NCBI GenBank assembly: GCA_038064195.1
Contig: JBBTTO010000002.1
Location: forward strand, 539,722 to 603,721
Direction of reading: 5' to 3'
Source of the DNA: Patescibacteria group bacterium
GTDB lineage: Bacteria; Patescibacteriota; Microgenomatia; Levybacterales; UBA12049
Length of the DNA stretch: 64,000 nucleotides
A model generated the notes under the pieces. The model ran no database searches, was not told where the DNA came from, and was given only the letters and a program-made list of their open reading frames with translations. Made by a program: the position numbers and the translations under genes. How positions within the stretch are numbered: the stretch's first letter is position 1; every line of letters begins with the position of its first letter. Shown piece after piece: positions 8,069-43,808 of the stretch.

Positions 8069-8725
8069 GTGAATGAATATTTTAATACAGAAGTTGTAAC
8101 CTCCACCTTACGAAAGATGGTAGATGTTCTTGAAGAAAACAATATCGAATATCGTTTTTTAGGTTCTGTTGTTATTGCTGCTATTAATGGTCGTTTACAT
8201 CGAAATTTGGGGGATTTAGACTTCGTGATTGATTCTGAGGGGCGGGAGGTATTATATAAACACCTAAAACATTTCGGATTTAAACCCGCTCCTGGAATGT
8301 TTGCATTTGCTCGTAAATACCTGTGCTTAGAGCAGTTTACTCATGATGACTTTCTTGGGGTAGGGTACTTTTATGGGAAGTTTCAGCAAGATGGCTCATT
8401 CATTATGGGTAATAAGCAGTCGAATGTAAGAGTAGATGCTTTTGCACTAGAAAAGACGAAGTATACTCTTGGTGGGGTAAGTTTTATGGGTATTCCTCAA
8501 AGAGCAGCTGCTGCAGGTGTAAAAGAATCTGAATCAAACCCAAAGAGAAAATTTGAGAAGAAGATTCTAAAAGAGAAGGGCATAGAACCTTTCAAGAACA
8601 ATTACATTCACGTAACTATCTATGGAATAAATGCAGATTGGGTATACCATTTGTCTATGGCAATTCTTAATGTTATAGGAGCAGTAAGAGTAAAATTTGG
8701 TTTGGCATTTGACCCCTGGAGATAG
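8069..8725 (+). CDS. Pol-beta-fold nucleotidyltransferase, Lnu/ANT-like (lincosamide/aminoglycoside nucleotidyltransferase-like)
   Basis: GS-x14-DLDF with HRNLGDLDFVID, which resembles the LnuA-type ...GGWGVDVLTGKQQREHRDIDIDF core. The size (218 aa) fits that family. Confidence 0.45.
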   Translation: MNEYFNTEVVTSTLRKMVDVLEENNIEYRFLGSVVIAAINGRLHRNLGDLDFVIDSEGREVLYKHLKHFGFKPAPGMFAFARKYLCLEQFTHDDFLGVGYFYGKFQQDGSFIMGNKQSNVRVDAFALEKTKYTLGGVSFMGIPQRAAAAGVKESESNPKRKFEKKILKEKGIEPFKNNYIHVTIYGINADWVYHLSMAILNVIGAVRVKFGLAFDPWR

Positions 8726-8783
8726 ATGTAAATAACCTCACCTATGTCGCATTTTCCACTATTGTGCGACGTAATAATAAAAT

Positions 8784-8839: not shown

Positions 8840-9589
8840 ATGAAAGATTACCCATTTAAAACACAAGAGGAAGCAATTAAATATATACAAAAACTATTCA
8901 GACGAATAGGCACTACTCCAGGAGAGAAAGTTTTTTACAAAGAAAGTGGCATGAAATTATACCCACTTCAAAAACTTGGCTTCTCCAATTATGGTCAATT
9001 AGTAAGGGAAGCAGAATTGCCTCCTAATAAGTTTGATAAAACTAAATATACCGAGGATTTTTTAATTAAAGAATTTATAAAAATGATTAGAAAGAATAAA
9101 AAATGGCCTACAAAAGCTGAATTGGATATTAAACACTTTAATGATCCAAATTTTCCTACCTCAGCAACATTCTATAAAAAATTTGGCTTAGTTAAGGGTA
9201 TGGCTGAAAATATCTTAGATTATACCTATGGGAAAAAAGGTTATAAAGACGTGAGAGACATATGCAATGAGATACTCATGAAATATGATAATTCAATGTC
9301 AAATGAAGAAGGAGATTCAAGAAGTGGTTATGTTTATATCCTTAAAAACGGAGGTCGACAAGAATATAAAATCGGGATTAGCGATAGTATACCCAAAAGA
9401 GGAATGCAATTGTCAACATTATCTCCTGAAAATTTAGAATTAATACATTCCATAAAGGCAACTAGTCCTAAAGCTGTTGAAAGATTTCTTCATGACAAAT
9501 TTAATAGCAAAAGAATACAAGGAGAATGGTTTAATCTATCAACGTCCGACATAAAATGGATTAAGAAATGGAACGGAAATGTTCTATAG
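8840..9589 (+). CDS. T5orf172 (GIY-YIG-superfamily) domain protein with two N-terminal homing-endonuclease-associated-type repeats
   Basis: C-terminal GYVYILKNGGRQEYKIGIS...R...L...W motif of the T5orf172/MUG113-like GIY-YIG family. Duplicated ...P..(F/Y)...F..YG repeat units in the N-terminal half. Confidence 0.5.
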   Translation: MKDYPFKTQEEAIKYIQKLFRRIGTTPGEKVFYKESGMKLYPLQKLGFSNYGQLVREAELPPNKFDKTKYTEDFLIKEFIKMIRKNKKWPTKAELDIKHFNDPNFPTSATFYKKFGLVKGMAENILDYTYGKKGYKDVRDICNEILMKYDNSMSNEEGDSRSGYVYILKNGGRQEYKIGISDSIPKRGMQLSTLSPENLELIHSIKATSPKAVERFLHDKFNSKRIQGEWFNLSTSDIKWIKKWNGNVL

Positions 9590-9714: not shown

Positions 9715-9742
9715 ATCCCTGCATTCCTCAGGCAGAGAAATT
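9715..9742 (+). repeat. Copy B of the 28-nt ftsZ-tail core (exact repeat of 7939-7966)
   Basis: 28/28 identity with copy A. The upstream context in-frame encodes [14 protein letters not shown]-stop. Confidence 0.9.
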
Positions 9743-20170: not shown

Positions 20171-20581
20171 ATGAGATTTTTTATTACATCAGAAAACCAT
20201 ACAACTATAGCAGATAAGGTGAGATCTGTTCGTAATTCGATTGGACAGAAAATTAGTAAAATGGCTGAAATGAAAGATTATGGACAAAGCGTTAGTTATT
20301 GGGGCCATATCTCAATTGTAAATCCTTCTAGTGTATATGATAAGGGTTTCTATCCTGAAGTTAAAAAATATTCTGGTAGTAAAAAAGAGGTCGAGCTTCG
20401 ATTGAAAATAGACTATGATGATGTCGTTAATGGTGACGAGAAAAAGTTATATACACTTTTTACGGATTCAATTCTTAGAGGAGTTCATATCGCAGAATCT
20501 GAATTAAAAATTGATGACTTTGATTTCAAAAGATTTAGAGCAGATTTAAATGAACTGTTTAGTAAGGAGGGATGGCTATGA
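20171..20581 (+). CDS. Putative cognate immunity protein of the RHS C-terminal toxin
   Basis: Small cytoplasmic ORF starting 3 nt after the toxin gene. It overlaps the next gene by 10 nt. Assigned by position only. Confidence 0.3.
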   Translation: MRFFITSENHTTIADKVRSVRNSIGQKISKMAEMKDYGQSVSYWGHISIVNPSSVYDKGFYPEVKKYSGSKKEVELRLKIDYDDVVNGDEKKLYTLFTDSILRGVHIAESELKIDDFDFKRFRADLNELFSKEGWL

Positions 20582-23500
20582 GAATATCTTTTGGGATCAT
20601 TAAAGTATTAGTTATAGTATTATTATTCGTAATTGCTAGTGTAACTACGACTTCAGCTGCGATGCAGGTGATTCCGCAAAATAATCCCCCGCAACAACCG
20701 AGGGATAAATTCCAGACAGATCTTTTTACCGGATCAGCTACCTATAGCTATCCTATTAACGTGCCAAAGGGCACCAATGATCTTACCCCCGAAGTTAGCT
20801 TTTCATACAACAATCAAGGCGCACACGACACAACAATGCAAAATGGTCTGGGGTGGCAGTTGGAGCGTGATTATATCCAAAGAGATGTTAATTACTCACC
20901 CTGGAATATTACAGATGACAAGTATAAACTGCATTTCAAAGGCCAGACCTATGATCTTGTCTATAACCCAACCGACAGTCTCTTCCATACAAAACAGGAG
21001 TCATTTCTTAAAATTCAACAATTCTTAACCGGCGGACAAGGGACAACCGGTATGTACTGGCAGGTGACTACTCCCGATGGAACGCTCTACCGTTTCGGTT
21101 ATACTACAAACTCAGCTCTTATTTGTGGCGGTCAGACATATGATGGATCCTGGAATGTGGATCAGGTAACTGATACGCATAACAATCATATCTATTTTAG
21201 CTATTTGCAGACTAATGGTGTTGCCTATCTCAGTCAGATCAAATACAACAACGATCAGCTTAGGGAAGTCAACTTTACCTACACTTCCAACTCTTACCAA
21301 AAGCCTGTCTCAGTCCAGGGATGTAGTATTAACGAGACATCAAAATTGTCTGCTATTTCAATCAAAGCAAGCGGAAGTGTCGTCAGAGGCTATGATCTTA
21401 CATATACAAATGCTTCAAATGGTCAGCCGTTGCTCTCCTCAATAACTGAAAAAGGTTCTGACAGCTCCTCTCCCCCCCCAACCACATTTACCTATAACCC
21501 TTCAAGCTCAGGGAATGGTTCAGGTATTGATTTCACAGGTGGAACAAATATAGATGCGGAGCTCAATCATTCAGATGTTGGTCTTTGTGATATGAACGGT
21601 GATGGGTACGTCGATCTTATAAAAACAACAGGAGGAGGGAATTTCAATTGGAATGTTAAACCAGGCAGTGGTACTGCTTTTGCAGCCACCTGGGTAACTA
21701 TGGCCTCAATTCCTGTTCAGTTAGGCGCTTCCAATATGAGACTTACTGATGTGACAGGGGACGGGAAATGTGATGTGGTTCAGACCGTCTATCGGGGAGG
21801 ACCAAATCCTAATTATGACTGGTTTGTCTGGACCAACACATCCGACAAACAGGCCGGGACACTTTCTTTTAGTGGTCAGACCAAATGGGAAGACAATATT
21901 AACTTTGATCAGGCAGCCGGCCTCACTGATACGAGCCTCACGCTTATCGATATGAATGGTGATGGGCTTTCTGATATTGTGCATGTCGGACAAAACAATG
22001 ACTGGGCAGTCTATCTTAACTTACCGGGACAAAATACCTGGAACAATGACAATACTAACTGGGCGCATGGGGTCTCATCTTTCAATAATCCGAGTACCAG
22101 ACTTGCTGATGTGAATGGTGATGGATTCCCTGATGTCATTATCTCAAGTAGTAACGGGGGGCCAAATGAAACCTATGAGGTTCTTCTTAATAGTGGTGGC
22201 TCACTCATGCCTTCTAAGAAATGGATTGATAATGCGAGTGTTGATGCCATTGATTTCAGTAATCACAACGTAGTTATTGCCGATGTCAATGGAGATGGAC
22301 TCCCTGATATTGTGCGGGGCAATGGCTTTAATTCAAGTAATACCAGTGCCCATTGGCAGGTATTACTTAATATGGGAGATCATTTTTCTACAACTATTAC
22401 TACCTGGTTTGATGCGACTATGAATGGGAGTAATGACTTTGACTTAGTTAAAGTTGTCGATCTCAATGGTGATGGTCTGACAGATGTTCTCAATCAGGCT
22501 TTTGGTTCATGGCAGGGTTATATTTCCCAGGGTTTTGCTCCTAATGCTCTTTATGAAATTACCACATCACAAGGGGGGTATATCGCCTTCGATTATACTC
22601 CGTCCACACGGTATTCTAATGGCAGTAATTTATCGTTCCCTCTTTGGCTGGTTAATAGGATGACTGTGCGGAATGGGCTTCCGGCACCGCACAGTACATC
22701 TGATGTTACAAACTATTTCTATGGAAATGGTAAATACAATGTCCAGCAGAGAGAGTTCCGAGGCTTTGGCAGCGTCAATGAAATATTAGCTAGTGGGACT
22801 AAGAGAGCATATAATTTTAATCAAGACGACGCACTGAAAGGAAGGCTTGCGTTGGAGGCTACCAGGGACACTAATGATAACCTCTACGCACGAACCGATT
22901 ATAGCTGGAGTAATTCACAAAGCAATAGTATTTATACTGTCTTGCTACAGTCTCAGCAAAAGTTTACCTATGATGGTGCGGGTGCAAATGCAAAGATCAT
23001 CCAGACTGATTATACGTATGATATCTTCGGGAATATTACCAAAACCTCAGAACTCGGTGATACGAGTTTAACAGGAGATGAGCGCTTCACTTACTCAGAG
23101 TATGCCTCAAATCCGACTCTTTGGCTGGTTAGCACTCCGAAACATACGTATAAAAGAGCAGCCGACGACACGACTAAACTCTCAGAGTCATGGTTTTACT
23201 ATGACGGTCATACAGGTCTTGATGACGCACCGACGAGAGGTGATGTCACGAAAGAAGTTAAATGGCTTAATACAGCCTCCGTAAATCCGACTATTCTTTC
23301 TGAGTATGATGCGTTTGGTAATCTTATTAAAGTAACTGATGCCAATAGTCACATTACGGGGTATCACTATGGTACGAGTGATACCACCTCAACATACCCT
23401 GACAATTCAACCAACGCCAAAAATCAAATAACTTCATACCTGTATGATCTCGGGACTGGCAACCTCCTTTCATCGTCTGATCCGAACGGATTTATCACTT

Positions 23501-26500
23501 CTTATCTGTATGATACTTTCGGCAGACTCAGCAAGGAGATCAAACCATATGATACCGCCAGCTTCCCAACGACTAGTTATCAATATTTTACTGATGGAGT
23601 AGCTCCTGAGGGTATCCTGGTTGCCAAACGTCAGACCAGCGGAGCTGCAGGAACACTTGATACCTATACCTGGGCTGATGGACTCGGAAGGGTTCTTCAG
23701 ACACGTGCACCTGCAGAGAATACTTCTCAGCAGATCGTAGTTGATTCATTCTATGGGCCAAGTAGTAAGGTAATTAAGCAAACAGTGCCTTATTTGACGA
23801 CGCTGAGTGCTGCGTATGCAACGCCTGTGAGTGGAGTAAGGGCGACAACAACGGTCTATGATCCGCTTGATCGGCCGACACTTGTAACCAATCCCAACGG
23901 GACGACTCGCACTACAGCGTATGATCACTGGAAAGTCAGTACAACTGATGAGAATAGTCATGTCGTGAATAAGATTTTCAACGCTTTTGACAAAATAATC
24001 AGAATTGAAGAGATTGTGGCCTCACTCCCACAAGTCACCACGTATGCTTACAATGGGTTAGACAATTTGATCGCGATTACCGATAGCGCGGGTAACAATT
24101 TTTCACTCTCCTATGACTCATTGGGTAGACGAGTTACTCAAGTCGATCCGGATTTGGGTACATGGCGCTATGAATATGATAGTGTCGGAAATCTGACGAA
24201 AAGAACAGATAATCGTAATATAGCGATTGTGAAAAACTATGATGAGTTAGATCGCTTGACTAAAGTAGATTATCCAACTGATACCGATATCACGTATACC
24301 TATGATGGTAATACGAGGATTGGGAGCCTGACATCTGTCATCGATACAGCCGGGACGATCAACTATACTTATGACAACCGTCTCCGCAAATTATCAGAGC
24401 AACGCACGATCGATGGTACGAGCTGGACGACACAATACGCCTACGATGCGCTTGATCGGATAATGAGCCAAACAAATCCGGATGGCGAGGTGGTAGGGTA
24501 TACCTTTAACTCCCAAGGCGAGATAGATAAAGTGACCGGAATTCTCAACAATATCGACTACAGTGCTTTGGGAAAGATTACTAAAAAAGATTTTGCCAAT
24601 GCTTTGTCTACAGTATATTCGTACAACTCCGATGACTTCCGGCTGCATAACATCAAAACAGGTTCGCTGCAGGATCTGACCTATACATACGATAATGTGG
24701 GGAATATAACAAGTATTGCTAATGCAGTAACGAGTAAGACTCAAAATTTCGGTTACGATGATCTGAACAGGTTGCTTACAGCTTCGCTCACCGGAGGCTA
24801 TAATTATGCTTACAGCTACAACGCAATCGGTAATTTACTGACATTCAATAATGGTTCAGCCACTATTAATTACACATATGGCCAGAATGTCGGGGTACAT
24901 GCCCTGACCACCTCTTCCGAAACTGCAGTAGCTACACCGACGCCGACTCCAACGTCCACCCAACCTACGCCCACTCCGACACCATTACCTGGGGGCGGGA
25001 CTGAACTCCTGGGTACGATCTGGACGCTCTCAGGCAATAATAGTGACGCACAGAATGATAAAGTAATTACTTCCAATTCTCTTAACGGGATGACATCGGC
25101 TCAGGTTACGTTCAATTTACATGGCAAGACATTCGGCACAGGAGACGATGAAGCATCAATTATCTTTATTCAAAATGGAGTATGGCTGGCAGCAAATGTC
25201 ACCAAATTCGGTGCTCAAAATGGTTTGGATGGTTTACAAACGGTAACGATCCCCTTGACAAGCTTCCATAAGGTTAATGATGCAAGTGTAACCCTCGATC
25301 CGAGTCAGCCAGTCTCAAATCTGCATGCCAGGTTCTGGAATAGTTTTTCATTCACAGTCGATATTACGAGCGTTAAAGTCACAGCAGTGACGAGTACTCT
25401 TCAGTCTCAGGGTAAACCAATCGTCGCATCGACACAAAAGACGGGATATGAGGCCACAAAAGCCAATGATGGCAATATTGGTTCGTACTGGGAAGGAGTG
25501 GATCATGCCTTTCCAGCTTCGCTTACGGTGGATTTGGGAGCAGTCTATTCAGTAGACAAAGTGGTTATGAAGCTTAACTGGGGCGCGAGAACGGAAAATG
25601 TTACGATTTTAGGGAGCACGGATAACACTACTTTCACCACTATCGTTGGAGCTACTAATTATTCTATAGGCAATGTTCCTGTTACCTTTACGTCGCGAAA
25701 TATACGTTATGTACGGATTATGGTTAATGCCAATAGTGTAACGCCTGCTGGACAAATGGCAGAGTTTGAAGTATGGGGACAAGGTTCAGGTGGACCGACT
25801 CCAACCCCTACAGTTCAGCCAACGCCTACACCAACTGCTACACCCACTCCAACACCAACGCCTGCAAGTGGTTATACTGGTCAGTACTATTCAAATAAAA
25901 CACTCTCTGGTTCACCTACGTTGACGAGAAATGATACTGCCATTAATTTTGACTGGGGATCTGGAAGACCCGATCCATTGCTGCCTGTTGATAACTTTTC
26001 CGTACGTTGGAACAGAACCATTAATTTCACAGCCGGTTCATATAAATTCTCGATGACCGGGGATGATGGAGTAAGACTTAAGATAGACGGAGTCACAGTA
26101 ATCGATAAATGGATTGACCAGGGACCAACTACCTATACAACCACCCAACAGTTAACAGCAGGTAACCATACGATAGTTATGGAGTATTACGAAAGTGGTG
26201 GTGGAGCTGTGGCTAAACTCTCCTATCTGGAAGTTCAGGCGCCGACCCCAACGCCTACGCCCTCTGGTAGTGGCACAGAGATACTCGGAACTATCTGGAC
26301 GCTTATCGGCAATAATGGTGCTGCTGAGAGAGACAAAACACTTGCGGCCAATACCTTAAATGGTAAAACATCCGCACAAATTACCTTTGATCTGCATGGT
26401 GCAACTTTCGGCGGGGGAGATGATGAGGCCTCAATTGTTTTCGTCCAAAGCGGCGATTGGCGGGCAGCCAACGTCACTAAGTTCGGGGCGCAAAACGGCT

Positions 26501-26664
26501 TGAATGGGAGTCAGACAGTGACGATCCCATTGACGAGCTTTCACAAAGTAGGCAATGCGGGTATTACTCTTAATCCTGCGCTGTCAGTTTCCAACCTCCA
26601 TGCCAGGTTCTGGAGGAGCTCTTCATTTACTGTTGATATAACCAGCGTCAAGCTCCTCCCCTAA
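20572..26664 (+). CDS. Giant secreted SpvB/TcB-like YD(RHS)-repeat protein. It has FG-GAP-type beta-propeller repeats and C-terminal PT-linkers, a discoidin-like domain, a PA14 domain and two copies of a ~130-aa lectin-like domain. It has no RHS core or toxin tip.
   Basis: Signal peptide. SpvB N-terminal motif DLFTGSATYSYPINVPKG...LGWQL. Repeated D(V/M/L)NGDG(L/Y)(P/T)D units. Many YD repeats (YTYDIFGNITKT, YDSLGRRVTQ..., and others). PA14-like segment (GYTGQYYSN...NFSVRW...). Discoidin-like segment (ANDGNIGSYWEG). Two ~65%-identical C-terminal modules. Confidence 0.8.
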   Translation: MAMRISFGIIKVLVIVLLFVIASVTTTSAAMQVIPQNNPPQQPRDKFQTDLFTGSATYSYPINVPKGTNDLTPEVSFSYNNQGAHDTTMQNGLGWQLERDYIQRDVNYSPWNITDDKYKLHFKGQTYDLVYNPTDSLFHTKQESFLKIQQFLTGGQGTTGMYWQVTTPDGTLYRFGYTTNSALICGGQTYDGSWNVDQVTDTHNNHIYFSYLQTNGVAYLSQIKYNNDQLREVNFTYTSNSYQKPVSVQGCSINETSKLSAISIKASGSVVRGYDLTYTNASNGQPLLSSITEKGSDSSSPPPTTFTYNPSSSGNGSGIDFTGGTNIDAELNHSDVGLCDMNGDGYVDLIKTTGGGNFNWNVKPGSGTAFAATWVTMASIPVQLGASNMRLTDVTGDGKCDVVQTVYRGGPNPNYDWFVWTNTSDKQAGTLSFSGQTKWEDNINFDQAAGLTDTSLTLIDMNGDGLSDIVHVGQNNDWAVYLNLPGQNTWNNDNTNWAHGVSSFNNPSTRLADVNGDGFPDVIISSSNGGPNETYEVLLNSGGSLMPSKKWIDNASVDAIDFSNHNVVIADVNGDGLPDIVRGNGFNSSNTSAHWQVLLNMGDHFSTTITTWFDATMNGSNDFDLVKVVDLNGDGLTDVLNQAFGSWQGYISQGFAPNALYEITTSQGGYIAFDYTPSTRYSNGSNLSFPLWLVNRMTVRNGLPAPHSTSDVTNYFYGNGKYNVQQREFRGFGSVNEILASGTKRAYNFNQDDALKGRLALEATRDTNDNLYARTDYSWSNSQSNSIYTVLLQSQQKFTYDGAGANAKIIQTDYTYDIFGNITKTSELGDTSLTGDERFTYSEYASNPTLWLVSTPKHTYKRAADDTTKLSESWFYYDGHTGLDDAPTRGDVTKEVKWLNTASVNPTILSEYDAFGNLIKVTDANSHITGYHYGTSDTTSTYPDNSTNAKNQITSYLYDLGTGNLLSSSDPNGFITSYLYDTFGRLSKEIKPYDTASFPTTSYQYFTDGVAPEGILVAKRQTSGAAGTLDTYTWADGLGRVLQTRAPAENTSQQIVVDSFYGPSSKVIKQTVPYLTTLSAAYATPVSGVRATTTVYDPLDRPTLVTNPNGTTRTTAYDHWKVSTTDENSHVVNKIFNAFDKIIRIEEIVASLPQVTTYAYNGLDNLIAITDSAGNNFSLSYDSLGRRVTQVDPDLGTWRYEYDSVGNLTKRTDNRNIAIVKNYDELDRLTKVDYPTDTDITYTYDGNTRIGSLTSVIDTAGTINYTYDNRLRKLSEQRTIDGTSWTTQYAYDALDRIMSQTNPDGEVVGYTFNSQGEIDKVTGILNNIDYSALGKITKKDFANALSTVYSYNSDDFRLHNIKTGSLQDLTYTYDNVGNITSIANAVTSKTQNFGYDDLNRLLTASLTGGYNYAYSYNAIGNLLTFNNGSATINYTYGQNVGVHALTTSSETAVATPTPTPTSTQPTPTPTPLPGGGTELLGTIWTLSGNNSDAQNDKVITSNSLNGMTSAQVTFNLHGKTFGTGDDEASIIFIQNGVWLAANVTKFGAQNGLDGLQTVTIPLTSFHKVNDASVTLDPSQPVSNLHARFWNSFSFTVDITSVKVTAVTSTLQSQGKPIVASTQKTGYEATKANDGNIGSYWEGVDHAFPASLTVDLGAVYSVDKVVMKLNWGARTENVTILGSTDNTTFTTIVGATNYSIGNVPVTFTSRNIRYVRIMVNANSVTPAGQMAEFEVWGQGSGGPTPTPTVQPTPTPTATPTPTPTPASGYTGQYYSNKTLSGSPTLTRNDTAINFDWGSGRPDPLLPVDNFSVRWNRTINFTAGSYKFSMTGDDGVRLKIDGVTVIDKWIDQGPTTYTTTQQLTAGNHTIVMEYYESGGGAVAKLSYLEVQAPTPTPTPSGSGTEILGTIWTLIGNNGAAERDKTLAANTLNGKTSAQITFDLHGATFGGGDDEASIVFVQSGDWRAANVTKFGAQNGLNGSQTVTIPLTSFHKVGNAGITLNPALSVSNLHARFWRSSSFTVDITSVKLLP
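24999..25392 (+). repeat. Internal coding repeat unit 1 (~130-aa module GTELLGTIWTLSGNN...FTVDITSVKV)
   Basis: Paralogous to 26266-26661 at both DNA (~75%) and protein level. Confidence 0.7.
26266..26661 (+). repeat. Internal coding repeat unit 2 (GTEILGTIWTLIGNN...FTVDITSVKL)
   Basis: Paralogous to 24999-25392. Confidence 0.7.
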
Positions 26665-36269: not shown

Positions 36270-37143
36270 TACAGTCGGTCAACTAACAGAACTCGAACCA
36301 GCCCAACTCCAGTCCAACCCTCTTCAGCCCCGTGGTGTCATTCTCCAGGACTCACTCACTGATCTCGTCGAGTCAATTCGTGAACAGGGAATCCTCGAGC
36401 CGATCGTCGTTGCCAAAACACCGGCAGGTTTTCAAATCATCGCAGGCGAGAGACGTTGGCGGGCAGCCAAGATTTTGGGTCTTCCCAAAGTACCGGTTGT
36501 GATCAGAGAGACGACTCCACAGGGGATGCTGGAGATGTCAATTGTGGAGAATGTGCAGCGGGAAGATCTTAACCCCATCGAAAGAGCTCTCTCATATAGA
36601 AGATTGATTGATGAATTCGGACTCGGTACCAATGAGGTCGCTAAGAGAATCGGTAAAAGTGCACCAACCGTCTCCAATACCATTCGTTTGCTTTCACTCC
36701 CCGATGCTATTAAAGATGCACTCGTTGCGGGTGTTATCACCGAGGGGCATGTACGTCCTCTCATATCACTTGGTGATCCTAAATTAATGCTTGAGCTTTT
36801 TAAGAGAATTCTACGGGACAATCTGACGGTTAGACAGACTGAGGACATATCACGCAAAGTAAAAGGTGAAGTCCAGCAAAAAGAGCCGATCACGAAAAAA
36901 GATCGACTTTGGGTACCTGAACAAGATACCATGGCCCAGCAACTTCAGGAAAAGTATCGGGTTGACGATGTAAAAATATTTCAGTCCAGCAAATTGGCCC
37001 GCATGACGATTGTTATTAAAGGGGATGTCGATGTCACGACCAAAAAACTCAAACAGCTTCATGAAATACTCAGCGGGGCGGATGTTAATGAAGAAAATCT
37101 TCAAGAAGAGCCGGCAGCTCCTGAAACCCTCACAGCTCAATAA
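36262..37143 (+). CDS. parB: ParB/Spo0J chromosome-partitioning protein
   Basis: [26 protein letters not shown] and HTH region. Confidence 0.85.
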
Positions 37144-37148
37144 CTAAG

Positions 37149-37718
37149 CTATTTATAAGGATTTGAGATGGCGTGTGCTTCACTTATCGGCCAATAGACA
37201 AAGAAAGATTTACCGATCACCTCAGACTTTTTCAAAAATCCCCACTCCCGTGAATCAGAACTGTTAGCTCTGTTATCGCCCATAACAAAGATCTCGCCTG
37301 TAGGCACTTTTTTGGGTGCATTTTCAGGTAAAAATGTCCCACCAAACGTTTTGACATCAGAGCTGAGATAACTCTGTTCATTCAGTCTTTCACCATTGAC
37401 ATAGACGCTGCCTTCTTTGATCTCTACAGTGTCACCATTCATACCGATAACTCTTTTTATGAAATCCTTACTGCTATCAACCGGAGCCTTAAAGACGATC
37501 ACGTCCCCCTTATTAAGATGTCCCATTTTAAGTCCGATAATATTAGTGAAAATATATTCTTTATCTTTGTAGGTCGGGAACATCGAATCACCTGAGACCT
37601 GAAAAGGTCTAGCGATGATAAAATAAATCACCAAAAAGACGGCCAGTGCCATGCCGAAAGTCTGCAGAGTGTCTGAAAAAAATCCCAGGGCTTTTTTGTG
37701 AACAGGTTGTTGTTCCAT
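37149..37718 (-). CDS. lepB: Signal peptidase I
   Basis: GDSMFPTY (catalytic Ser box) and GDNRANSSDSREWG (box E). Convergent with parB, stops 5 nt apart. Confidence 0.85.
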   Translation of the reverse strand: MEQQPVHKKALGFFSDTLQTFGMALAVFLVIYFIIARPFQVSGDSMFPTYKDKEYIFTNIIGLKMGHLNKGDVIVFKAPVDSSKDFIKRVIGMNGDTVEIKEGSVYVNGERLNEQSYLSSDVKTFGGTFLPENAPKKVPTGEIFVMGDNRANSSDSREWGFLKKSEVIGKSFFVYWPISEAHAISNPYK

Positions 37719-37752
37719 AATGATTGGTCTATTATTCAGGACTACGCACGAT

Positions 37753-37781
37753 TTGTCAACCGCAATTCAATTTGCTAAGAT
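37753..37781 (+). promoter_or_regulatory. Candidate promoter (TTGTCA - 17 nt - TAAGAT) for the tRNA transcript
   Basis: Hexamers read directly. Confidence 0.3.
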
Positions 37782-37850
37782 TCCTGTACGGTTGCATAGC
37801 TCAGCCCCGATTTAATCGGGGTCAGCAGGTTAGACCTGTCCGACATGTCT

Positions 37851-37924
37851 GGATCCTTAGCTCAGTTGGTTAGAGCGTTGCATTCACATTGCAAAGGTCG
37901 GAAGTTCGAGTCTTCTAGGATCCA
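37851..37924 (+). tRNA. tRNA-Val (anticodon CAC), CCA not encoded
   Basis: Folded by hand. 7-bp acceptor GGATCCT/AGGATCC. D-arm TAGCTCAGTTGGTTAGAGC. Anticodon stem TTGCA/TGCAA with loop TTCACAT. T-arm GGAAGTTCGAGTCTTCT. Discriminator A. Confidence 0.85.
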
Positions 37925-37944
37925 CATTCCGCGTTGGTTCCCTG

Positions 37945-37979
37945 CCCGCCATAGCTATCGCTAGGCGATTGCAGGCGGG
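37945..37979 (+). other. Branched GC-rich stem-loop immediately 3' of tRNA-Val (CCCGCC...GGCGGG with inner hairpin ATCGC-TAG-GCGAT). Possible processing or terminator structure.
   Basis: Inverted repeats read from the sequence. No adjacent U-run, so a terminator call is weak. Confidence 0.25.
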
Positions 37980-38117
37980 GAGTCCAGCTGCGACCACAGA
38001 TTATTTTCTCAGAAAATAGGTATTCCAATAGTAACATTCGGGTTAATGAAGGCTACTTATGCGCTTTCTTCTGGACTTTCTTGAATTTCCCGACGTTCAG
38101 GCATACGAGCTGATTAT

Positions 38118-38138
38118 ACATTCCTCAGGCATAAATGA
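38118..38138 (+). repeat. Copy E: degenerate ftsZ-tail core (ACATTCCTCAGGCATAAATGA), 200 nt after tRNA-Val
   Basis: 13/13 match to CATTCCTCAGGCA of the core. Flanks diverged. Confidence 0.5.
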
Positions 38139-38404
38139 AAATAGAGGGCTATTAATCCATAACTGGTTTGTGGATAGGTTAATAGACTTAAATAAATACC
38201 ATAAATATCTTGAATTCAAGTCCTTTTCATCACAATGAGATATGGTTCATAAGGTTGTGGTAGAGATGAGATCTTAGCCTTACTCTTTTCGAGGATTAGC
38301 CACAAATTGTGATAAAGTAGCCTCAAAAATTTCCGATCCACAACCCACAACTTGTGGTGTTTTAATACAGACAACAATCATTGTGCGACGTTAAAGCTTA
38401 CTTT

Positions 38405-38433
38405 TTGATAAACTTAAAGTTTTGATGTATAAT
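38405..38433 (+). promoter_or_regulatory. Candidate promoter (TTGATA - 17 nt - TATAAT). The ATG at 38440 lies 7 nt after the -10 (leaderless). Shared 12-mer ATTGTGCGACGT at 38380-38391.
   Basis: Hexamers read directly. The 12-mer is identical to 8761-8772. Confidence 0.4.
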
Positions 38434-38439
38434 TTCACT

Positions 38440-38856
38440 ATGAATCAATCTAAGGTGAACTTTATTCATTTATGTGATGCTGCAACTATTGACGGGTCAG
38501 GTAAATTAAATATGCTTGGAATATTTAGCATAATTTATCTACAAGAAATCCCTGGTAAGTTTCCAAAGTTCACTGCAGTTGTGAGTATCGGAATTGAGGG
38601 GAAAGAAGGCTCAAAAAATATTTTAGATATTAAAATTGTTGCGCCAGATAATAAAGATTTGACTGTTAACCCTCCCATAAAAACTGAATTTACTACACCT
38701 AAAATACCTTTTAAAAAAACACCAACGCTTAATTTAATTCTTGATATAGGCAATCTCGGATTTAACACTGGTGGGAAACACACCCTAAATGTTTTTTTAA
38801 ATGGGAAGAATATTGGTTCTAAAAGTTTCGATGTTGAAAAAAGAGAGGTTAAATAA
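38440..38856 (+). CDS. Hypothetical protein, gene 1 of a tightly coupled three-gene cassette (the ORF track starts at a TTG at 38422 inside the -10)
   Basis: ORF with no recognisable domain. 2-nt gap to the next gene. Confidence 0.5.
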   Translation: MNQSKVNFIHLCDAATIDGSGKLNMLGIFSIIYLQEIPGKFPKFTAVVSIGIEGKEGSKNILDIKIVAPDNKDLTVNPPIKTEFTTPKIPFKKTPTLNLILDIGNLGFNTGGKHTLNVFLNGKNIGSKSFDVEKREVK

Positions 38857-38858
38857 AT

Positions 38859-39359
38859 ATGTGGGTAACACCTATACCAGCAACTCAAACAGCCGTTAAT
38901 GATTTTTCAGAAAGAAACCAATTAACAAGTGGCTTCGTTAGCAATGCTTTGAAAGTGGAAAGCTTGAAACCATTGCAAAACCTAACATCGGTATACGTGT
39001 CTGGAGCAACAATTATTGAAGGCATCATAGCTTTCCGACCCCAGCCTATACAAAACATGCTCAGTTCTGGTGTGGTAACACTTGCGGGTAATTATCCTGA
39101 GGAACAGGGGTTGAAGGCATTAGATTTTGTCGATATGACAACTCAGACTATGTTAAATTATTTTGACCCAAGTATTCAAAGGGGTCTTCCTGCTCCTAGC
39201 GAAACTTTAGTAAAAGACGAACAAGATGAGCTTATAGATTATATGTTAAAAAATGAAAATGTAGAATTTCACCCTCATGCGAAAACCATGCAGATTACTG
39301 TAAAAATTGGCAAAGCAGAGCACATCGTCCCTCAAATATCTATAGATGATGACGAATAA
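38859..39359 (+). CDS. Hypothetical protein, gene 2 of the cassette
   Basis: ORF with no recognisable domain. Its stop overlaps the next start (ATAATG). Confidence 0.5.
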   Translation: MWVTPIPATQTAVNDFSERNQLTSGFVSNALKVESLKPLQNLTSVYVSGATIIEGIIAFRPQPIQNMLSSGVVTLAGNYPEEQGLKALDFVDMTTQTMLNYFDPSIQRGLPAPSETLVKDEQDELIDYMLKNENVEFHPHAKTMQITVKIGKAEHIVPQISIDDDE

Positions 39360-39910
39360 TGAGTCAAAGATTCAAATGGTATAAGCGAGTATCAAGTGCT
39401 TCAGATTTGGAGCAAGGGGATTTTATTTATGGGTGTCCAATTATTGTTCCCCCAGACGAATATCCTGAACGTTTAGAAAATGCAACCATAAATACCACAG
39501 TTAAATCAAATAACGTTATAATTCTGACTCAATCATGCGACTTAATTGGAACCAGAGATAAACCAGAAGTTATTTTGGTCTGTCCGTATTGGGAGTTTCA
39601 TGAAGTTAAAGAGTCAAATCCCACATTATTAAGTAAGAGCTTTATAGAATCTGTAAAAAAGGGCTATCGGCCACGCTTCCACATTCTTAATAAATGCGAT
39701 ATAAATGGACACAAAAAGGAATATATGCTAGTAGACTTTACATATGTCTACGCTATCCCTACAGTTTCGCTCCCTAAGATTTTAACTCGGAATAAGACTA
39801 GGTTAAGAATGCTTCCTCCATACAGAGAACAGTTTGCCCAATCTTTTGCACACTTTTATAGTAGAATAGGGTTGCCAGAAAATTTGCCTGCCGGAATCGG
39901 TAGCATATAA
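39359..39910 (+). CDS. Hypothetical protein, gene 3 of the cassette (four conserved-looking Cys, including a QSCDL motif)
   Basis: ORF with no recognisable domain. Confidence 0.5.
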   Translation: MSQRFKWYKRVSSASDLEQGDFIYGCPIIVPPDEYPERLENATINTTVKSNNVIILTQSCDLIGTRDKPEVILVCPYWEFHEVKESNPTLLSKSFIESVKKGYRPRFHILNKCDINGHKKEYMLVDFTYVYAIPTVSLPKILTRNKTRLRMLPPYREQFAQSFAHFYSRIGLPENLPAGIGSI

Positions 39911-40007
39911 ATCTGTTGGTTGACTTCTTAGAGCTTCTTTGTTAAATTCATCTTGTAGACTTAAAAAGCAAACTTTATTTTCAGGTGTTTTACTTGAATT
40001 TAGCTTC

Positions 40008-40059
40008 AAAAGTAGGGGATGACTCATGAATCCCCGCATTCCTCAGACAGCGTAATTAA
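40008..40059 (+). repeat. Copy C: AAAAGTAGGGGATGACTCATGA + ATCCCCGCATTCCTCAGACAGCGTAATTAA. The core still encodes IPAFLRQRN-stop via synonymous changes.
   Basis: 25/30 nt identity to the ftsZ end, with all differences synonymous in the FtsZ reading frame. The 5' flank is shared with copy D. Confidence 0.7.
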
Positions 40060-40125
40060 CTAGTTTTAGCTTCAACTTTCTAGTAAGCACCTTAGGGTGC
40101 TTTTTTAATTGTCATAGTTTCAGCA

Positions 40126-40798
40126 CTACCAATATACAATGTCGCCTTTAGCTGTGTATAAAACGATTTTAAAAAATCTACTTTGATCAACAATAACTTT
40201 TCTTATATATGAAGGTTTTATTGATATTTTCGAGATGGATTCATCGAGATTGAAAAGGTCTCTGTTGGCAAGAACGAACTTTCTCACTTTTGTCTCTTCA
40301 TTGTTAATAACACCATCTCTATGGACAAGAATGTTTCTGATCTCAATATAACGTTGAAGTGTAGTAAGAAGCTCATCTGAAAGTGAAGTTATATTTGGGT
40401 GATTGGATTTCTGTAGAAGCTCTCTAAACCATTTTTCGAAGAGGCTCATTTTATGTTCATGTTTAGGATTGTATGTTATTGAAGGGTTATTTTTCGAAAT
40501 TGTTCTGGAGATAAGATCAATATGCTTTTCAAATGCAGTGTTGAGTGTAATTCCCAAACCACTTAGCAAATTCCTTTCCAGCTCAGATATCATAAATGAG
40601 TCGTCTGAAAAGGAGTCGATTCGTGATTGGTAATACTCTTCGTTCTTAATTCGTTCATGCTCGTTTTCATTTATCCACTGTTGTGCAGAAACTTCGAGCT
40701 CGTCCTTTTTTTTTAGATATTAGTTCTTCAATTTCTCCAAGAACAAAAATACTTGTTTCAAAGTCAAAGTGAGGGTCAATAAATGATATTATTGGCAT
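40126..40798 (-). pseudogene. HEPN-like (R-x4-H) protein gene, apparently frameshifted at an A9 tract (plus-strand T9 at 40712-40720). The annotated 155-aa ORF (40126-40593) is the downstream frame. An ATG at 40798 opens the upstream frame 8 nt after the PIN gene stop.
   Basis: Frames traced by hand. MPIISFIDPHFDFETSIFVLGEIEELISKKK then shifts +1 into ...DELEVSAQQWINENEHE...MISELERNLL.... With 8 rather than 9 A the two frames fuse into a ~225-aa protein. EIRNILVHRDG matches the HEPN Rx4-6H motif. Confidence 0.45.
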
Positions 40799-40804
40799 TT
40801 TCTT

Positions 40805-41929
40805 CTAAAATATAGTGTAGATTTCCTCACAATTAGGACAAACTTCACCAAATTTTACTTCTCCAGAAGCACAATACCCGCAAGTTTTATCAATTTTTAT
40901 GTCAGGTTTATAGAATGAGCTATATTTTGCTAATAGTTCTTCGGGTATTATCTCCTGATATTTCTCAATAAGATGACTAAAGAATGTTTTGACGTCATCA
41001 TCTTCTATAATCAGCAGTATTTGGTCATTATCTAGGCCAGCTTGAAGCATCTTACATACTTCATTATCGGAAAAGTTAGTAAATAATGATAATCTTCTAA
41101 GAACAGCATGTGTTGTTGCGAATGATGGGCTTTCTACTAAGATTTGAACATAAGGCTCATGTTCTAATTCACTTGCGAGTTTTATATTTGGGAAGTGCTG
41201 ACTGAAAAATGCAGAGAGGGTAGTGTAAAAGAAGATTTGAGAGTTTTTTTCTTGATTCCATTCTTCTTGTAGGAAATCTGAAATTGCTTCAGCACTAATC
41301 TTAGAAATATAGTCTTTATCTTTTGCAATCAAATGTAATCCTTCCTCGTCTGGAACTGCGCTTAGAAGGCTTTCCCAATTTATTGAATCACCATAAGAGC
41401 CATCTTTGCCAGGTGGGTTTCCTATTTCATATCTACGTCTTGCTTGGTTTAGCAACTCAGAAGTAGTAGGGATAACCTTAGCAAGATTAAACAAGTTAAG
41501 AATTAGCTTGTCAGCATCTAAAGACTTATTTTCTATATCTACATGAACTTTTTGAAGGAGTTGATCTTTTGTCCGTATATAATCCCCAATGAGCGATTTT
41601 AGTTTGGAGTATTCTTGATAATCGTGGACGAACCTAGGAAATGAGTCAGGAATTGATTGAACACTCATTACTTTGAGAGAACTGGCAATCTTTGCCTCCC
41701 TATTTCTCCGATACTCGCCTATTGTTTGTTGAGGAACAAAAAGATTTATTTTCTTAGCTTTGATAGCTACCTCTAGTTTTCTAAGTTCTTCAATATCATC
41801 TTTAGAAAAATCATAGAATGTTAAATAAATATTTGTGTCGATAAACAAATTCATGAGCTCTATTATATCACTTGATTGACTTTCATTAGCTTTGCTGTTA
41901 AATTCTTTTCTAAGACATAAGAAAGTCAT
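40805..41929 (-). CDS. PIN-like nuclease domain protein with a C-terminal CxxC...CxxC zinc ribbon
   Basis: N-terminal LFIDTNIYL (PIN first-Asp motif), downstream acidic residues including GKDGSYGDSINW, and C-terminal CGYCASGEVKFGEVCPNCEE. Confidence 0.45.
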   Translation of the reverse strand: MTFLCLRKEFNSKANESQSSDIIELMNLFIDTNIYLTFYDFSKDDIEELRKLEVAIKAKKINLFVPQQTIGEYRRNREAKIASSLKVMSVQSIPDSFPRFVHDYQEYSKLKSLIGDYIRTKDQLLQKVHVDIENKSLDADKLILNLFNLAKVIPTTSELLNQARRRYEIGNPPGKDGSYGDSINWESLLSAVPDEEGLHLIAKDKDYISKISAEAISDFLQEEWNQEKNSQIFFYTTLSAFFSQHFPNIKLASELEHEPYVQILVESPSFATTHAVLRRLSLFTNFSDNEVCKMLQAGLDNDQILLIIEDDDVKTFFSHLIEKYQEIIPEELLAKYSSFYKPDIKIDKTCGYCASGEVKFGEVCPNCEEIYTIF

Positions 41930-41964
41930 TTCTTAATAGGTGTCTTTTAGGAGTTTTTAAGGCT

Positions 41965-42006
41965 AAAAGTAGGGGACAACTAATGAATTCCCGCATTTCT
42001 AAGACG
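41965..42006 (+). repeat. Copy D: AAAAGTAGGGGACAACTAATGA + ATTCCCGCATTTCTAAGACG. The core encodes IPAFLRR.. (synonymous changes plus loss of one codon).
   Basis: Aligns with copy C over ~45 nt. Overlaps the stop of the 41999-42745 gene. Confidence 0.6.
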
Positions 42007-42745
42007 TTTTTACTGCGACAATTGAAATATTGGATTCGCCAAACATTGGGATTGTATAGGAGTCAAGTGTTGTAACCAGATTGGATAAATGTCCCCGAAT
42101 AAATCTGACTGACTGTCCAAGAATTTTACTTGTAAATAAAAAATTCCTAAGAACACCTTCATGCCTACCTGACTGAATTACCTTATAGCCATTATTCTCT
42201 ACAAGAGATATAAGATTAGATAATGTATAACGTCGTAAGTGTCCGACCTCTTTATCAAACCTGTTTAACAATCCGAGACGGTACAAGGGCGCATTTAAAG
42301 AAGGAGTTGTAATAACAAGTAATCCATTTGGTTTGAGAACACTTCTGATATCACGTAAAGCTTTTGCATCATCCTCAAGGTGTTCGATAACTTCCGAGAA
42401 TATGACTAGGTCATAGTTTTTTGTTGGAATTTTAGATGGAAATGCAGCATTAATAAAAGTTATCTTTTTATTAAGATTAAATAATTCAGCATTTTTTCTT
42501 GCAAGTTCCACAGCACTTTTAGAAATTTCTATTCCAGTAACTTCTTTACCTTTTGAAGCAAGGTAAAAATCTATCGTACCAACTCCGGAACCTATATCTA
42601 ATATCTTTTTGACTTTTGGAAGGTAGGGTTTTAAAATTCTTATCAAATGACGATATGTAAAATCATTTTCATTGATGATTCTTTTCTGTAGACGTCGATC
42701 TTGATGAAATGCTTGATAGAGAGCTAAATCTTTTTTCATAGTCAT
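41999..42745 (-). CDS. Class I SAM-dependent methyltransferase
   Basis: Motif I ILDIGSGVGTIDF and post-I acidic residue (EISKSA). DLVIFSEVIEHL motif. Confidence 0.7.
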   Translation of the reverse strand: MTMKKDLALYQAFHQDRRLQKRIINENDFTYRHLIRILKPYLPKVKKILDIGSGVGTIDFYLASKGKEVTGIEISKSAVELARKNAELFNLNKKITFINAAFPSKIPTKNYDLVIFSEVIEHLEDDAKALRDIRSVLKPNGLLVITTPSLNAPLYRLGLLNRFDKEVGHLRRYTLSNLISLVENNGYKVIQSGRHEGVLRNFLFTSKILGQSVRFIRGHLSNLVTTLDSYTIPMFGESNISIVAVKTS

Positions 42746-42791
42746 CTTGCAAAGTAGTATATCAGATGAGCCAATCTAGTATAATATTATC

Positions 42792-43808
42792 ATGAAAAAA
42801 TTGAACATAGTTTTCCTTACTCGGTCGTATTATCCCAATGTAGGTGGGGTGGAGAAGCATGTTTATGAGATTTCCAAAAGATTAGCTGCTTTAGGTCATC
42901 ACGTTACTATCATTACCGAGGATACAAAGAGGGAAAAAGGAGTAGATTTTGATTTCCGGCTAAAAAATGTTGATGTCATTGAGATTCCTGTAGGAGGGGA
43001 TGATTGGTTTAAAAAGTTTCGTATCTGGAAATGGGTGTGGCAACATAAAAATATTTTTCTCAAATCAGATATCATCCATTGCCATGATGTCTTTTTCTGG
43101 TATTTACCTTTAGCATTTCTTTATCCTTTGAAAAATGTTTATACCACTTTTCATGGCTACGAAAGTTATCCAATTAAAAAAAAGGCAATTATTTATCGCA
43201 AGATATTTGAATACATGTCCAATCGCACGATCTGCGTAGGCGCCTTTATGACGAAGTGGTATCACGCTCATCCGGCCAAAATGATCTATGGAGCAGCTGA
43301 GATTCCTAAAAAAACTACTGCTCCTAAGAAAAATTCAGCGATTTTTATTGGTCGCTTGGATGAACATACCGGAATTGATGTCTATCTAAAGGCAACAGAG
43401 TTAATCAGAAAAAAAATAAAGAACTTCACCCTCACAGTATATGGTGACGGGCCATATACTGAGCAATTAAAAGGTCAGAAAGGCATCATTTTCAAAGGGT
43501 ACGATCTCTCAGCTGAGAAGGAAATTATTAAATATGAATATGCCTTCGTCTCGCGCTATTTGGCAATTCTTGAAGCGCTGGCAGCTAAACGTCGAGTTGT
43601 CGCAGTCTATGATAATCCAGTAAAGAAAGATTATTTAACGATGACCCCCTTTAAGGACTGGATCGATATTTGTCGCGATGAAGAAGATGTTGCAAAAATT
43701 GTCACAGAAAAAACCGGTAATGAAGCGATAACCAAGGCGTACACCTGGGTTAGCGAGCAGACCTGGGTCCGACTCGCCGAGGTTTATCTTTCTCTTTGGC
43801 AGAAATAA
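42792..43808 (+). CDS. Glycosyltransferase family 4 (GT-B)
   Basis: N-terminal YYPNVGGVEKHVYEISKRLAALGHHVTII and C-terminal LAILEALAAKRRVVA regions typical of GT4. Confidence 0.65.
   Translation: MKKLNIVFLTRSYYPNVGGVEKHVYEISKRLAALGHHVTIITEDTKREKGVDFDFRLKNVDVIEIPVGGDDWFKKFRIWKWVWQHKNIFLKSDIIHCHDVFFWYLPLAFLYPLKNVYTTFHGYESYPIKKKAIIYRKIFEYMSNRTICVGAFMTKWYHAHPAKMIYGAAEIPKKTTAPKKNSAIFIGRLDEHTGIDVYLKATELIRKKIKNFTLTVYGDGPYTEQLKGQKGIIFKGYDLSAEKEIIKYEYAFVSRYLAILEALAAKRRVVAVYDNPVKKDYLTMTPFKDWIDICRDEEDVAKIVTEKTGNEAITKAYTWVSEQTWVRLAEVYLSLWQK

Follow-up and report, generated by a model that had tools for sequence, protein, structure and literature searches.

Organisation of the locus

The window, that is, the whole 64-kb stretch of DNA that was analysed, contains three consecutive genes on the forward strand, here named P1, P2 and P3. 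P1 (38440..38856) encodes a DUF6941 protein of 138 aa, P2 (38859..39359) is a hypervariable middle gene encoding 166 aa, and P3 (39359..39910) encodes a protein of 183 aa that has a MazF/PemK/CcdB/ToxN-type fold and belongs to a large unnamed family. P1 and P2 are separated by 2 nt, and P2 and P3 overlap by 1 nt in the sequence TAATG. The first-pass annotation of this DNA had described three tightly coupled open reading frames of 138, 166 and 183 aa, and their coordinates, the gap and the overlap were all verified. Homologues of P1 have lengths of 136–138 aa, and because of these lengths we prefer the start at 38440 over a call of 143 aa.

Upstream of P1, a sigma-70-type promoter was found on the forward strand (TTGATA-17 nt-TATAAT, 38405..38433), which agrees with the consensus at 11 of 12 positions and has the top score of the region. 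The ATG of P1 follows 7 nt past the -10 element, and a Shine-Dalgarno sequence is absent before it. A Levyibacteria genome (L085) has kept the block of -35, -10 and ATG in front of its orthologous cassette. The consensus-like promoter and the 7-nt distance that had been proposed are confirmed. With this single strong promoter the three genes would form one translationally coupled operon, and its mRNA is probably leaderless, with the 5´ end directly at the ATG of P1 (38440) or close to it. A terminator-like hairpin followed by a T run is located on the forward strand at 40085..40102, 175 nt past the stop codon of P3; it is the likely end of the operon and would be shared with the convergent gene for a HEPN-like protein.

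Two further elements lie in front of the promoter. The exact palindrome CACAA-N-TTGTG is present at 38301-38311 and 38346-38356 and nowhere else in the 64 kb, and the copy at 38346-38356 overlaps a terminator-like hairpin. The palindromes might serve as an operator or form a hairpin. The 12-mer ATTGTGCGACGT (38380..38391, forward strand) is located 13 nt upstream of the -35 element of the cassette and has exactly one further copy, at 8761; the cassette shares it with an island on the ftsZ side (island 1), as had been claimed. The copy in the ftsZ-side island is found 11 nt upstream of a second promoter (TTGACA-17-TATGCT). That both copies lie 11–13 nt upstream of a -35 hexamer is more striking than the sharing itself. 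In L085, the first 7 nt of the 12-mer are kept. One shared 12-mer, taken alone, is within chance expectation according to our own estimate, and at most it hints at a possible regulator site common to both islands.

A groundwater metagenome contig of 90 kb is 100% identical to the window. A strain variant (L171) differs by low-coverage frameshifts only and is uninformative.

Boundaries of the cassette

A tRNA-Val(CAC) gene is located upstream of the cassette (37851-37925), as had been noted. Copies of the 3´ end of ftsZ are present at 7942 (ftsZ proper), 9718, 40033 and 41990, and the interval from the tRNA-Val gene to P1 is free of them. Those at 40033 and 41990 are parts of an imperfect repeat of 143 nt on both sides of the genes for the HEPN-like and PIN_12 proteins; ftsZ-tail repeats are therefore not the boundaries of the trio. 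The remnant directly downstream of the cassette (40030..40061, forward strand), which encodes IPAFLRQRN and a stop codon, is the left edge of the HEPN-like/PIN_12 segment and not one half of a pair enclosing the trio. Thus, the proposal that the cassette is bounded by such repeats holds for its downstream side (40033) and fails upstream, where the tRNA-to-cassette interval contains no copy.

A direct repeat of the 3´ end of the tRNA-Val gene was not found elsewhere in the window, which leaves a tRNA-integrated island unsupported. The G+C content changes from about 0.44 in the upstream core genes to 0.33–0.36 from 38200 on, and the low values extend past the cassette into the downstream glycosylation genes.

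The third gene encodes a protein with a MazF-type fold

The model of P3 shows an SH3-like barrel and places the protein in the MazF/PemK/CcdB/ToxN structural superfamily, with the RNases MazF, Kid, CptN and ToxN predominating among the fold matches. The link is drawn from structure alone, in a medium-confidence model whose TQSCD loop has a pLDDT below 50. Searches with P3 yielded no match in Pfam, NCBIfam or PADLOC; PemK_toxin, CcdB and MazF of Pfam were not matched even at E up to 1, so that no gathering threshold was reached, and a profile of 49 P3 sequences detected neither MazF nor CcdB among PDB sequences at E up to 10. A search with a profile of five homologues showed that the family comprises 2,680 clusters at 50% identity, with E ≤1e-10 for 1,364, and its members in RefSeq and UniProt are annotated as 'hypothetical protein'. 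The module had been considered possibly undescribed; this stands insofar as its parts are annotated as hypothetical only, but the fold of P3 is the known fold of MazF/PemK toxins.

The most conserved loop of the family consists of T57-Q58-S59-C60-D61 (codons 39527..39541, forward strand), which follows strand 47-55 in the model and is the candidate active-site loop. Among 147 representatives, C60 is conserved in 100%, D61 in 99%, Q58 in 97%, C75 in 90% and H108 in 82%. Further conserved positions in this set are W7, Y8, Q19-G20-D21 and K68, and the C-terminal part contains the conserved block R148-x-R150-L-x-x-P154-Y155-R156-E157...Q161...R169-x-G-L-P. A Cys/His-rich pattern had been pointed out in P3 before, and of this pattern QSCD is kept in the representatives, whereas conservation is lacking for the Cys of 'NKCD' and for the His of 'WEFH'.

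Three resemblances to MazF, which have no statistical support, are that of the QGD strand to the 'RGD' start of MazF, that of the [ST]-Q-S-C-D loop, a region of low model confidence, to the T-T-Q-S-K loop, and that of the C-terminal helix to the terminal helix. Unlike P3 with its invariant C60, MazF-type RNases do not usually have an invariant Cys, and for the Arg that is conserved in the N-terminal loop of MazF, we see no obvious equivalent in P3.

On the basis of the model we propose that P3 is a toxin, probably an endoribonuclease. It would be the effector of the trio, most likely cutting RNA, and its chemistry may involve the invariant [ST]-Q-S-C-D loop, H108 and the Arg/Tyr/Glu-rich C-terminal strand-helix. 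The superfamily also includes CcdB, and P3 might instead be a CcdB-like poison or another non-nuclease binder that blocks, for example, gyrase, a reading that would keep the tripartite logic but that we consider quite improbable: the invariant residues Q58, C60, D61, K68, H108, R148, R150, Y155, R156, E157 and R169 resemble an active site together with a nucleic-acid-binding surface, and it is mainly RNases that the fold matches.

The three-gene operon is widespread and variable in its first gene

The first-pass annotation had stated that its reading would fall if the trio were not conserved as a unit elsewhere, and such conservation was found. For the survey, open reading frames were called around 84 P3 genes, and the gene order and coupling at these loci match those of the window. 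At 80 of the 84 loci a gene on the same strand is located directly upstream of P3. In 41 of these 80 cases the stop codon of this gene and the start of P3 share 1 or 4 nt; when all overlaps and all gaps of up to 30 nt are counted, the number is 75 of the 80. The first gene encodes a TIGR04255 protein of about 250 aa at 55 of the 84 loci and a DUF6941 protein at four, namely the window, the metagenome contig L001, Aquibacillus koreensis (L017) and Salinicoccus siamensis (L018). At 21 loci the first gene is another one or is missing, and some of these appear to be two-gene forms.

In reference genomes, the P3 profile detected 112 loci. They are distributed sporadically over more than ten phyla, with the nearest genome relatives being 31–42% identical, and the lineages include Chloroflexota, Cyanobacteria, Planctomycetota, Actinomycetota, Bacillota, Acidobacteriota, Nitrospirota, Armatimonadota, Bacteroidota, Binatota, Chlamydiota and Proteobacteria. 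Two copies (L006 and L082) are pseudogenised. The trio is a widespread operon type that has not been named.

P1 itself matches the Pfam family DUF6941 with E=9e-21 and 75 bits (cut-off 27) at profile positions 2-124 of 125, a score that exceeds the gathering threshold and covers the full domain; the statement that none of the three reading frames has a recognisable motif was therefore wrong for P1. The nearest named relative comes from a Candidatus Levyibacteriota MAG. The structure model of P1 is a small, generic Ig-like beta-sandwich, and in most relatives the slot that P1 seems to occupy is that of the TIGR04255 protein. The possibility that TIGR04255 is a duplicated DUF6941 was rejected, since hhalign gave a probability of 0.3 and the two families are thus not detectably related. 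The TIGR04255 profile yielded only weak matches to complement C3 in the PDB (E about 0.002), which we judged to be spurious. Within the set of papers whose full text was searched, neither family is named.

None of 80 metagenome DUF6941 loci had a P3-like gene beside it, so that DUF6941 is not specific to P3. It is present in many other operons, where its partners include CAAX/Rce1-like proteases, ClpP-like SDH proteases, DNA methylases, RelA/SpoT-like proteins and response regulators. We propose that P1 is an accessory subunit, a binder or sensor, which docks the N-terminal part of P2.

The middle gene is hypervariable and ends in an acidic tail

P2 could not be assigned to any family, and only close homologues of it were found. 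For all three proteins together, the searches of Pfam, NCBIfam, PADLOC and PHROGs yielded DUF6941 for P1 and otherwise weak PHROG families of unassigned role. A DNA-binding domain was not detected with Pfam, NCBIfam or PHROG. The middle genes across the P3 loci are mostly BLAST singletons that share little beyond a C-terminal strand and an acidic tail. In P2, this tail is KTMQITVKIGKAEHIVPQISIDDDE (39285..39356, forward strand), an amphipathic strand with an acidic end, and the end '...KTMQITVKIGKAEHIVPQISIDDDE' aligns with a cyanobacterial '...RSERVIMRAQFKGRKKPLPYIFDEE'. At least two D/E in the last six residues are present in 56 of 64 non-redundant middle proteins compared to 6.9% of control ORFs, and at least three in 43 of 64 (67%) compared to 0.8%. 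An amphipathic basic strand usually precedes the acidic end. We propose that P2 is an adaptor and antitoxin and that its C-terminal tail is the toxin-neutralising peptide: strand and tail, matched to P3, would block the substrate groove of P3.

The same tail could also have another role, if P3 were a thiol-dependent enzyme, a peptidase or transferase using C60, H108 and D61 on a MazF-like barrel, with the P2 tail as its substrate or processed peptide and P1 as carrier or partner. In this case the full conservation of C60, with Q58 two residues before it and with H108 and C75 conserved as well, would be expected, and middle proteins that are alike in a C-terminal motif alone are what recognition-tail substrates would look like. 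We regard this alternative, too, as quite improbable. The earlier suggestion of a catalytic Cys/His pattern is only partly right, the fold being that of MazF/PemK toxins and not one of a thiol enzyme.

Parts of the operon are exchanged between relatives

Comparison with relatives showed that the two halves of the middle protein are inherited with different partners. Between the window and the related Levyibacteria genome L085, P1 is 78% identical and residues 1-80 of P2 are 44% identical (E=2e-20), whereas the C-terminal half of P2 is unrelated and P3 is only 24% identical; the product of the third gene of L085 is distantly related to P3 and has the loop I-S-Q-D-C-D. For locus L003, residues 48-166 of P2 are 48% identical to the middle protein, and the P3 encoded after it is 79% identical to that of the window. 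A third pair, L013 and L017, has P3 proteins that are 57% identical, first genes from unrelated families and middle proteins that resemble each other at the C-terminus alone, and weakly so (E=0.07). In these sequence comparisons the N-terminal part of the middle protein (about 80 aa in P2) goes with the first gene and the C-terminal part with the third.

Prophage-like IMG/VR contigs carry TIGR04255-led triads with a different third gene of about 150 aa, and their middle proteins share the end motif PY-x-PE-x-WF, which is unlike the acidic tail. At L087, the middle gene behind the DUF6941 gene lacks the acidic tail, and the third gene of this locus has a D-S-G-A motif which, by eye, resembles that of retropepsins; Pfam gives no support for this.

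It is conceivable, and we suggest it tentatively, that the trio belongs to a class of modular conflict systems with three genes that is widespread and has not been recognised so far, consisting of a leader (TIGR04255 or DUF6941), a hypervariable adaptor and a swappable effector. The N-terminus of the adaptor would then fit the leader, its C-terminal tail would fit the effector, and the leader might be a sensor of infection or stress. The effectors would include the MazF-fold Q-x-C-D family, the second unnamed family of about 150 aa in the prophage contigs and perhaps more.

Genomic neighbourhood and mobility

The cassette adjoins two RNase-type genes. One encodes a HEPN-like protein of 155 aa with an R-x4-H HEPN motif and weak matches to HepT and RT-associated HEPN, the other a PIN_12 protein of 374 aa with a C-terminal CxxC...CxxC, which matches the PADLOC candidate PDC-S34. 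In L084 and L085 the cassette has another location, and its neighbours there include genes for a resolvase, an HTH protein and an Eco57I-type restriction-modification methylase. Among 110 flanking genes at 38 diverse loci, most are metabolic or housekeeping genes; the others include three integrases and one each of BrxL, a GajA/OLD-like protein and a type I R-M S subunit. With flanks that are mostly housekeeping, enrichment next to known defence genes, which had been put forward as a check, was not evident in this set, and an enrichment in defence islands is thus not shown. P3 homologues were absent from PLSDB plasmids and from the GenBank phage collection, and P3 trios were present on three contigs only in IMG/VR. 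One of these trios adjoins a gene that resembles a serine recombinase by eye. PADLOC-DB v2 contains no model that matches P1, P2, P3 or the TIGR04255-type relatives.

The trio had been interpreted as a mobile accessory module. The sporadic spread, the change of locus in L084/L085, the lower G+C content and the RNase-type neighbours agree with this, while the lack of bounding repeats and of a tRNA repeat, the absence from PLSDB and phages and the housekeeping flanks do not. It might also be possible that the three proteins form a niche-specific complex outside of any conflict, for example an RNA-processing or regulatory factor without toxin-antitoxin behaviour, and that the patchy occurrence is due to gene loss. 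The housekeeping flanks and the missing plasmid, phage and PADLOC matches would fit such a complex. Its patchiness would then, however, have to extend over more than ten phyla with 31–42% identity between the nearest genome relatives, and the location beside a resolvase and a restriction-modification gene in a related genome, the swaps of modules among relatives, the pseudogenised copies, the integrases flanking some loci and the three IMG/VR contigs with the trio argue against it; we think this explanation unlikely.

A proposed tripartite toxin-antitoxin module

The interpretation that we favour, with somewhat more confidence than doubt, is that the trio is a tripartite toxin-antitoxin or abortive-infection module with the accessory binder P1, the adaptor and antitoxin P2 and the MazF-fold toxin P3. 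Since P3 has a MazF/PemK fold, this is most likely a new three-part toxin-antitoxin system and not a wholly new kind of system. The N-terminal 80 or so residues of P2 would be matched to P1, which may bind and stabilise P2 or sense a trigger; loss of P2 would then free the toxin, and an anti-phage function might be the result. Of this picture, the analysis shows the fold of P3, the conserved operon, the tail motif and the co-inheritance of modules, from which toxicity, neutralisation, RNase chemistry, the role of P1 and any action against phages are inferred.

If P3 is an active toxin, a large MazF-fold clade, the 2,680 clusters described above, has been missed by Pfam, NCBIfam and PADLOC, and the orphan families DUF6941 and TIGR04255 would receive their first functional context. 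The apparently two-sided adaptor offers a testable rule for the exchange of parts in tripartite toxin-antitoxin and defence modules. In addition, the host is a small-genome bacterium of the CPR (candidate phyla radiation), in which knowledge of conflict systems is sparse and to which the trio adds.

Comparison with known systems

With the type II systems MazEF and Kis-Kid (PemIK) the trio shares the MazF/PemK/Kid fold of the last gene product, a small, fast-evolving and acidic-tailed protein encoded directly upstream in a coupled gene, and the sporadic distribution. It differs from them in that P3 is outside of the PemK_toxin and CcdB sequence families, is about 70 residues longer and has a helical insert and the invariant Q-x-C-D loop, and in that an extra conserved gene (DUF6941 or TIGR04255) leads the operon. 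The DNA-binding domain that characterises type II antitoxins is not recognisable in P2; palindromes are present upstream of the operon.

In the type III systems ToxIN, AbiQ and CptIN, the antitoxin consists of tandem RNA repeats upstream of the toxin, a position at which the trio has two protein genes. No tandem repeats were detected in 37700-40800, and TRF over 37700-42100 reported one weak two-copy array at 40881-40900 in the PIN_12 gene. The Rfam search returned nothing except the tRNA. Because of the missing tandem repeats and Rfam matches, a type III RNA antitoxin was ruled out.

Tripartite toxin-antitoxin-chaperone systems are known from M. tuberculosis (TAC, PMC9098466) and as CmdTAC (PMC11618068). 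Like the trio, they consist of three genes, and a dedicated segment of the antitoxin would be the site at which their accessory protein controls it; in the trio, the co-inheritance of the N-terminus of P2 with P1 and of its C-terminus with P3 may reflect a comparable arrangement. The accessory protein of TAC and CmdTAC is SecB-like and encoded by the last gene, whereas that of the trio is encoded by the first gene and is a TIGR04255 or DUF6941 protein, the latter Ig-like; a SecB-like third component is thus not present in the trio, P1 being a DUF6941 protein with a model of an Ig-like beta-sandwich. Their toxins, a HigB-like RNase or an mRNA ADP-ribosyltransferase, are unlike the MazF-fold P3. 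The accessory protein of CmdTAC reportedly senses phage as well.

For type II Gabija, a recent study describes GajC, an effector that is a split MazF-like protein (PMC13069673). The likeness to P3 is one by description; the partner of GajC is the UvrD-type helicase GajB, whereas the trio is without a helicase.

Leader genes and possible exchange of effectors

Of eight prophage-like IMG/VR contigs analysed (L175-L182), at least five (L175/L176 and L179-L182) contain a three-gene operon in which the first gene encodes TIGR04255. The third gene behind it belongs to a distinct, unnamed family of approximately 150 amino acids (alignment A13) for which no Pfam match was obtained, and the middle proteins of three of the contigs (L179, L180 and L182) end in a common PY-x-PE-x-WF motif. 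The combination of a different third-gene family with a common end of the middle protein suggests that effectors are exchanged behind one and the same leader gene, TIGR04255.

A locus with DUF6941, the family of the first cassette protein P1, is L087 (positions 566-2968). The gene order there begins with a 353 aa protein containing a RelA_SpoT domain; next come DUF6941, with 46% identity to P1, and then proteins of 139 and 142 aa. The 142 aa protein contains a D-S-G-A motif that recalls retropepsin-type aspartic proteases, a reading for which Pfam gave no support. In one Planctomycetota locus (L081, 6427-7947), a 506 aa protein is encoded upstream of P3, the proposed toxin. It carries the same strand-plus-acidic tail at its C-terminal end, fused to a long N-terminal region in which putative peptidase-like and acetyltransferase-like stretches were recognised by eye.

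Repeats and the segments they enclose

The 3´ end of ftsZ is present as an exact 28-nucleotide direct repeat (7939-7966 and 9715-9742), enclosing an insert of about 1.8 kb. The arrangement resembles that of an element which has inserted at the 3´ end of ftsZ. The insert contains a nucleotidyltransferase-like gene (8069-8725) with a weak Aminoglyc_resit match and a T5orf172/MUG113 (GIY-YIG-type) gene (8840-9589).

A probable second toxin or defence module lies 30 kb from ftsZ. Here, a 143-nucleotide imperfect repeat (39908-40048 and 41864-42005, 68% identity), within which ftsZ-tail remnants are found, encloses two minus-strand genes. One encodes a HEPN-like protein of 155 aa with the R-x4-H motif RNILVH and weak matches to HepT and RT-associated HEPN; the other encodes a PIN_12 protein of 374 aa, which has a C-terminal zinc-ribbon-like CxxC...CxxC and matches the PADLOC candidate PDC-S34.

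Sequences upstream of the cassette

The 12-mer ATTGTGCGACGT occurs 11 nucleotides upstream of the -35 element in the promoter preceding the T5orf172 gene (8761-8772; TTGACA-17-TATGCT) and 13 nucleotides upstream of that in the promoter preceding P1 (38380-38391; TTGATA-17-TATAAT). Its ATTGTGC part is also conserved in the related Levyibacteria genome L085. The 12-mer is possibly a regulator site common to both promoters, a weak candidate since there are only two cases.

Upstream of the cassette promoter, two exact CACAA-N-TTGTG palindromes (38301-38311 and 38346-38356) lie 45 nucleotides apart, with no further exact copies in the 64 kb. Both fall within a 53 aa ORF on the minus strand, which is unlikely to be a real gene. 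Immediately 3´ of tRNA-Val, a G/C rich hairpin (37930-37992) is located in an otherwise A/T rich genome. Folding of the 135 nucleotides of this region (37926-38060) yielded -45.6 kcal/mol (z = -2.9 against shuffles), and nothing in Rfam matched. The hairpin may represent either a terminator or what is left of an integration site.

Strain variant and a repeat-rich gene

The metagenome contig L171 (ERZ2470813) represents a 99.5% identical strain assembly with 29 gap positions in the 6 kb aligned to 37000-43000. These indels shorten the gene call for P2, the middle cassette protein, and abolish that for P3; most likely, they are assembly errors resulting from low coverage (4x) and not real pseudogenisation.

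Elsewhere in the window, a 2,030 aa ORF (20572-26664), probably encoding a large surface protein rich in repeats, contains at least five copies of a 35-nucleotide repeat, spaced 159-360 nucleotides apart and coding for D-x-N-G-D-G-type motifs.
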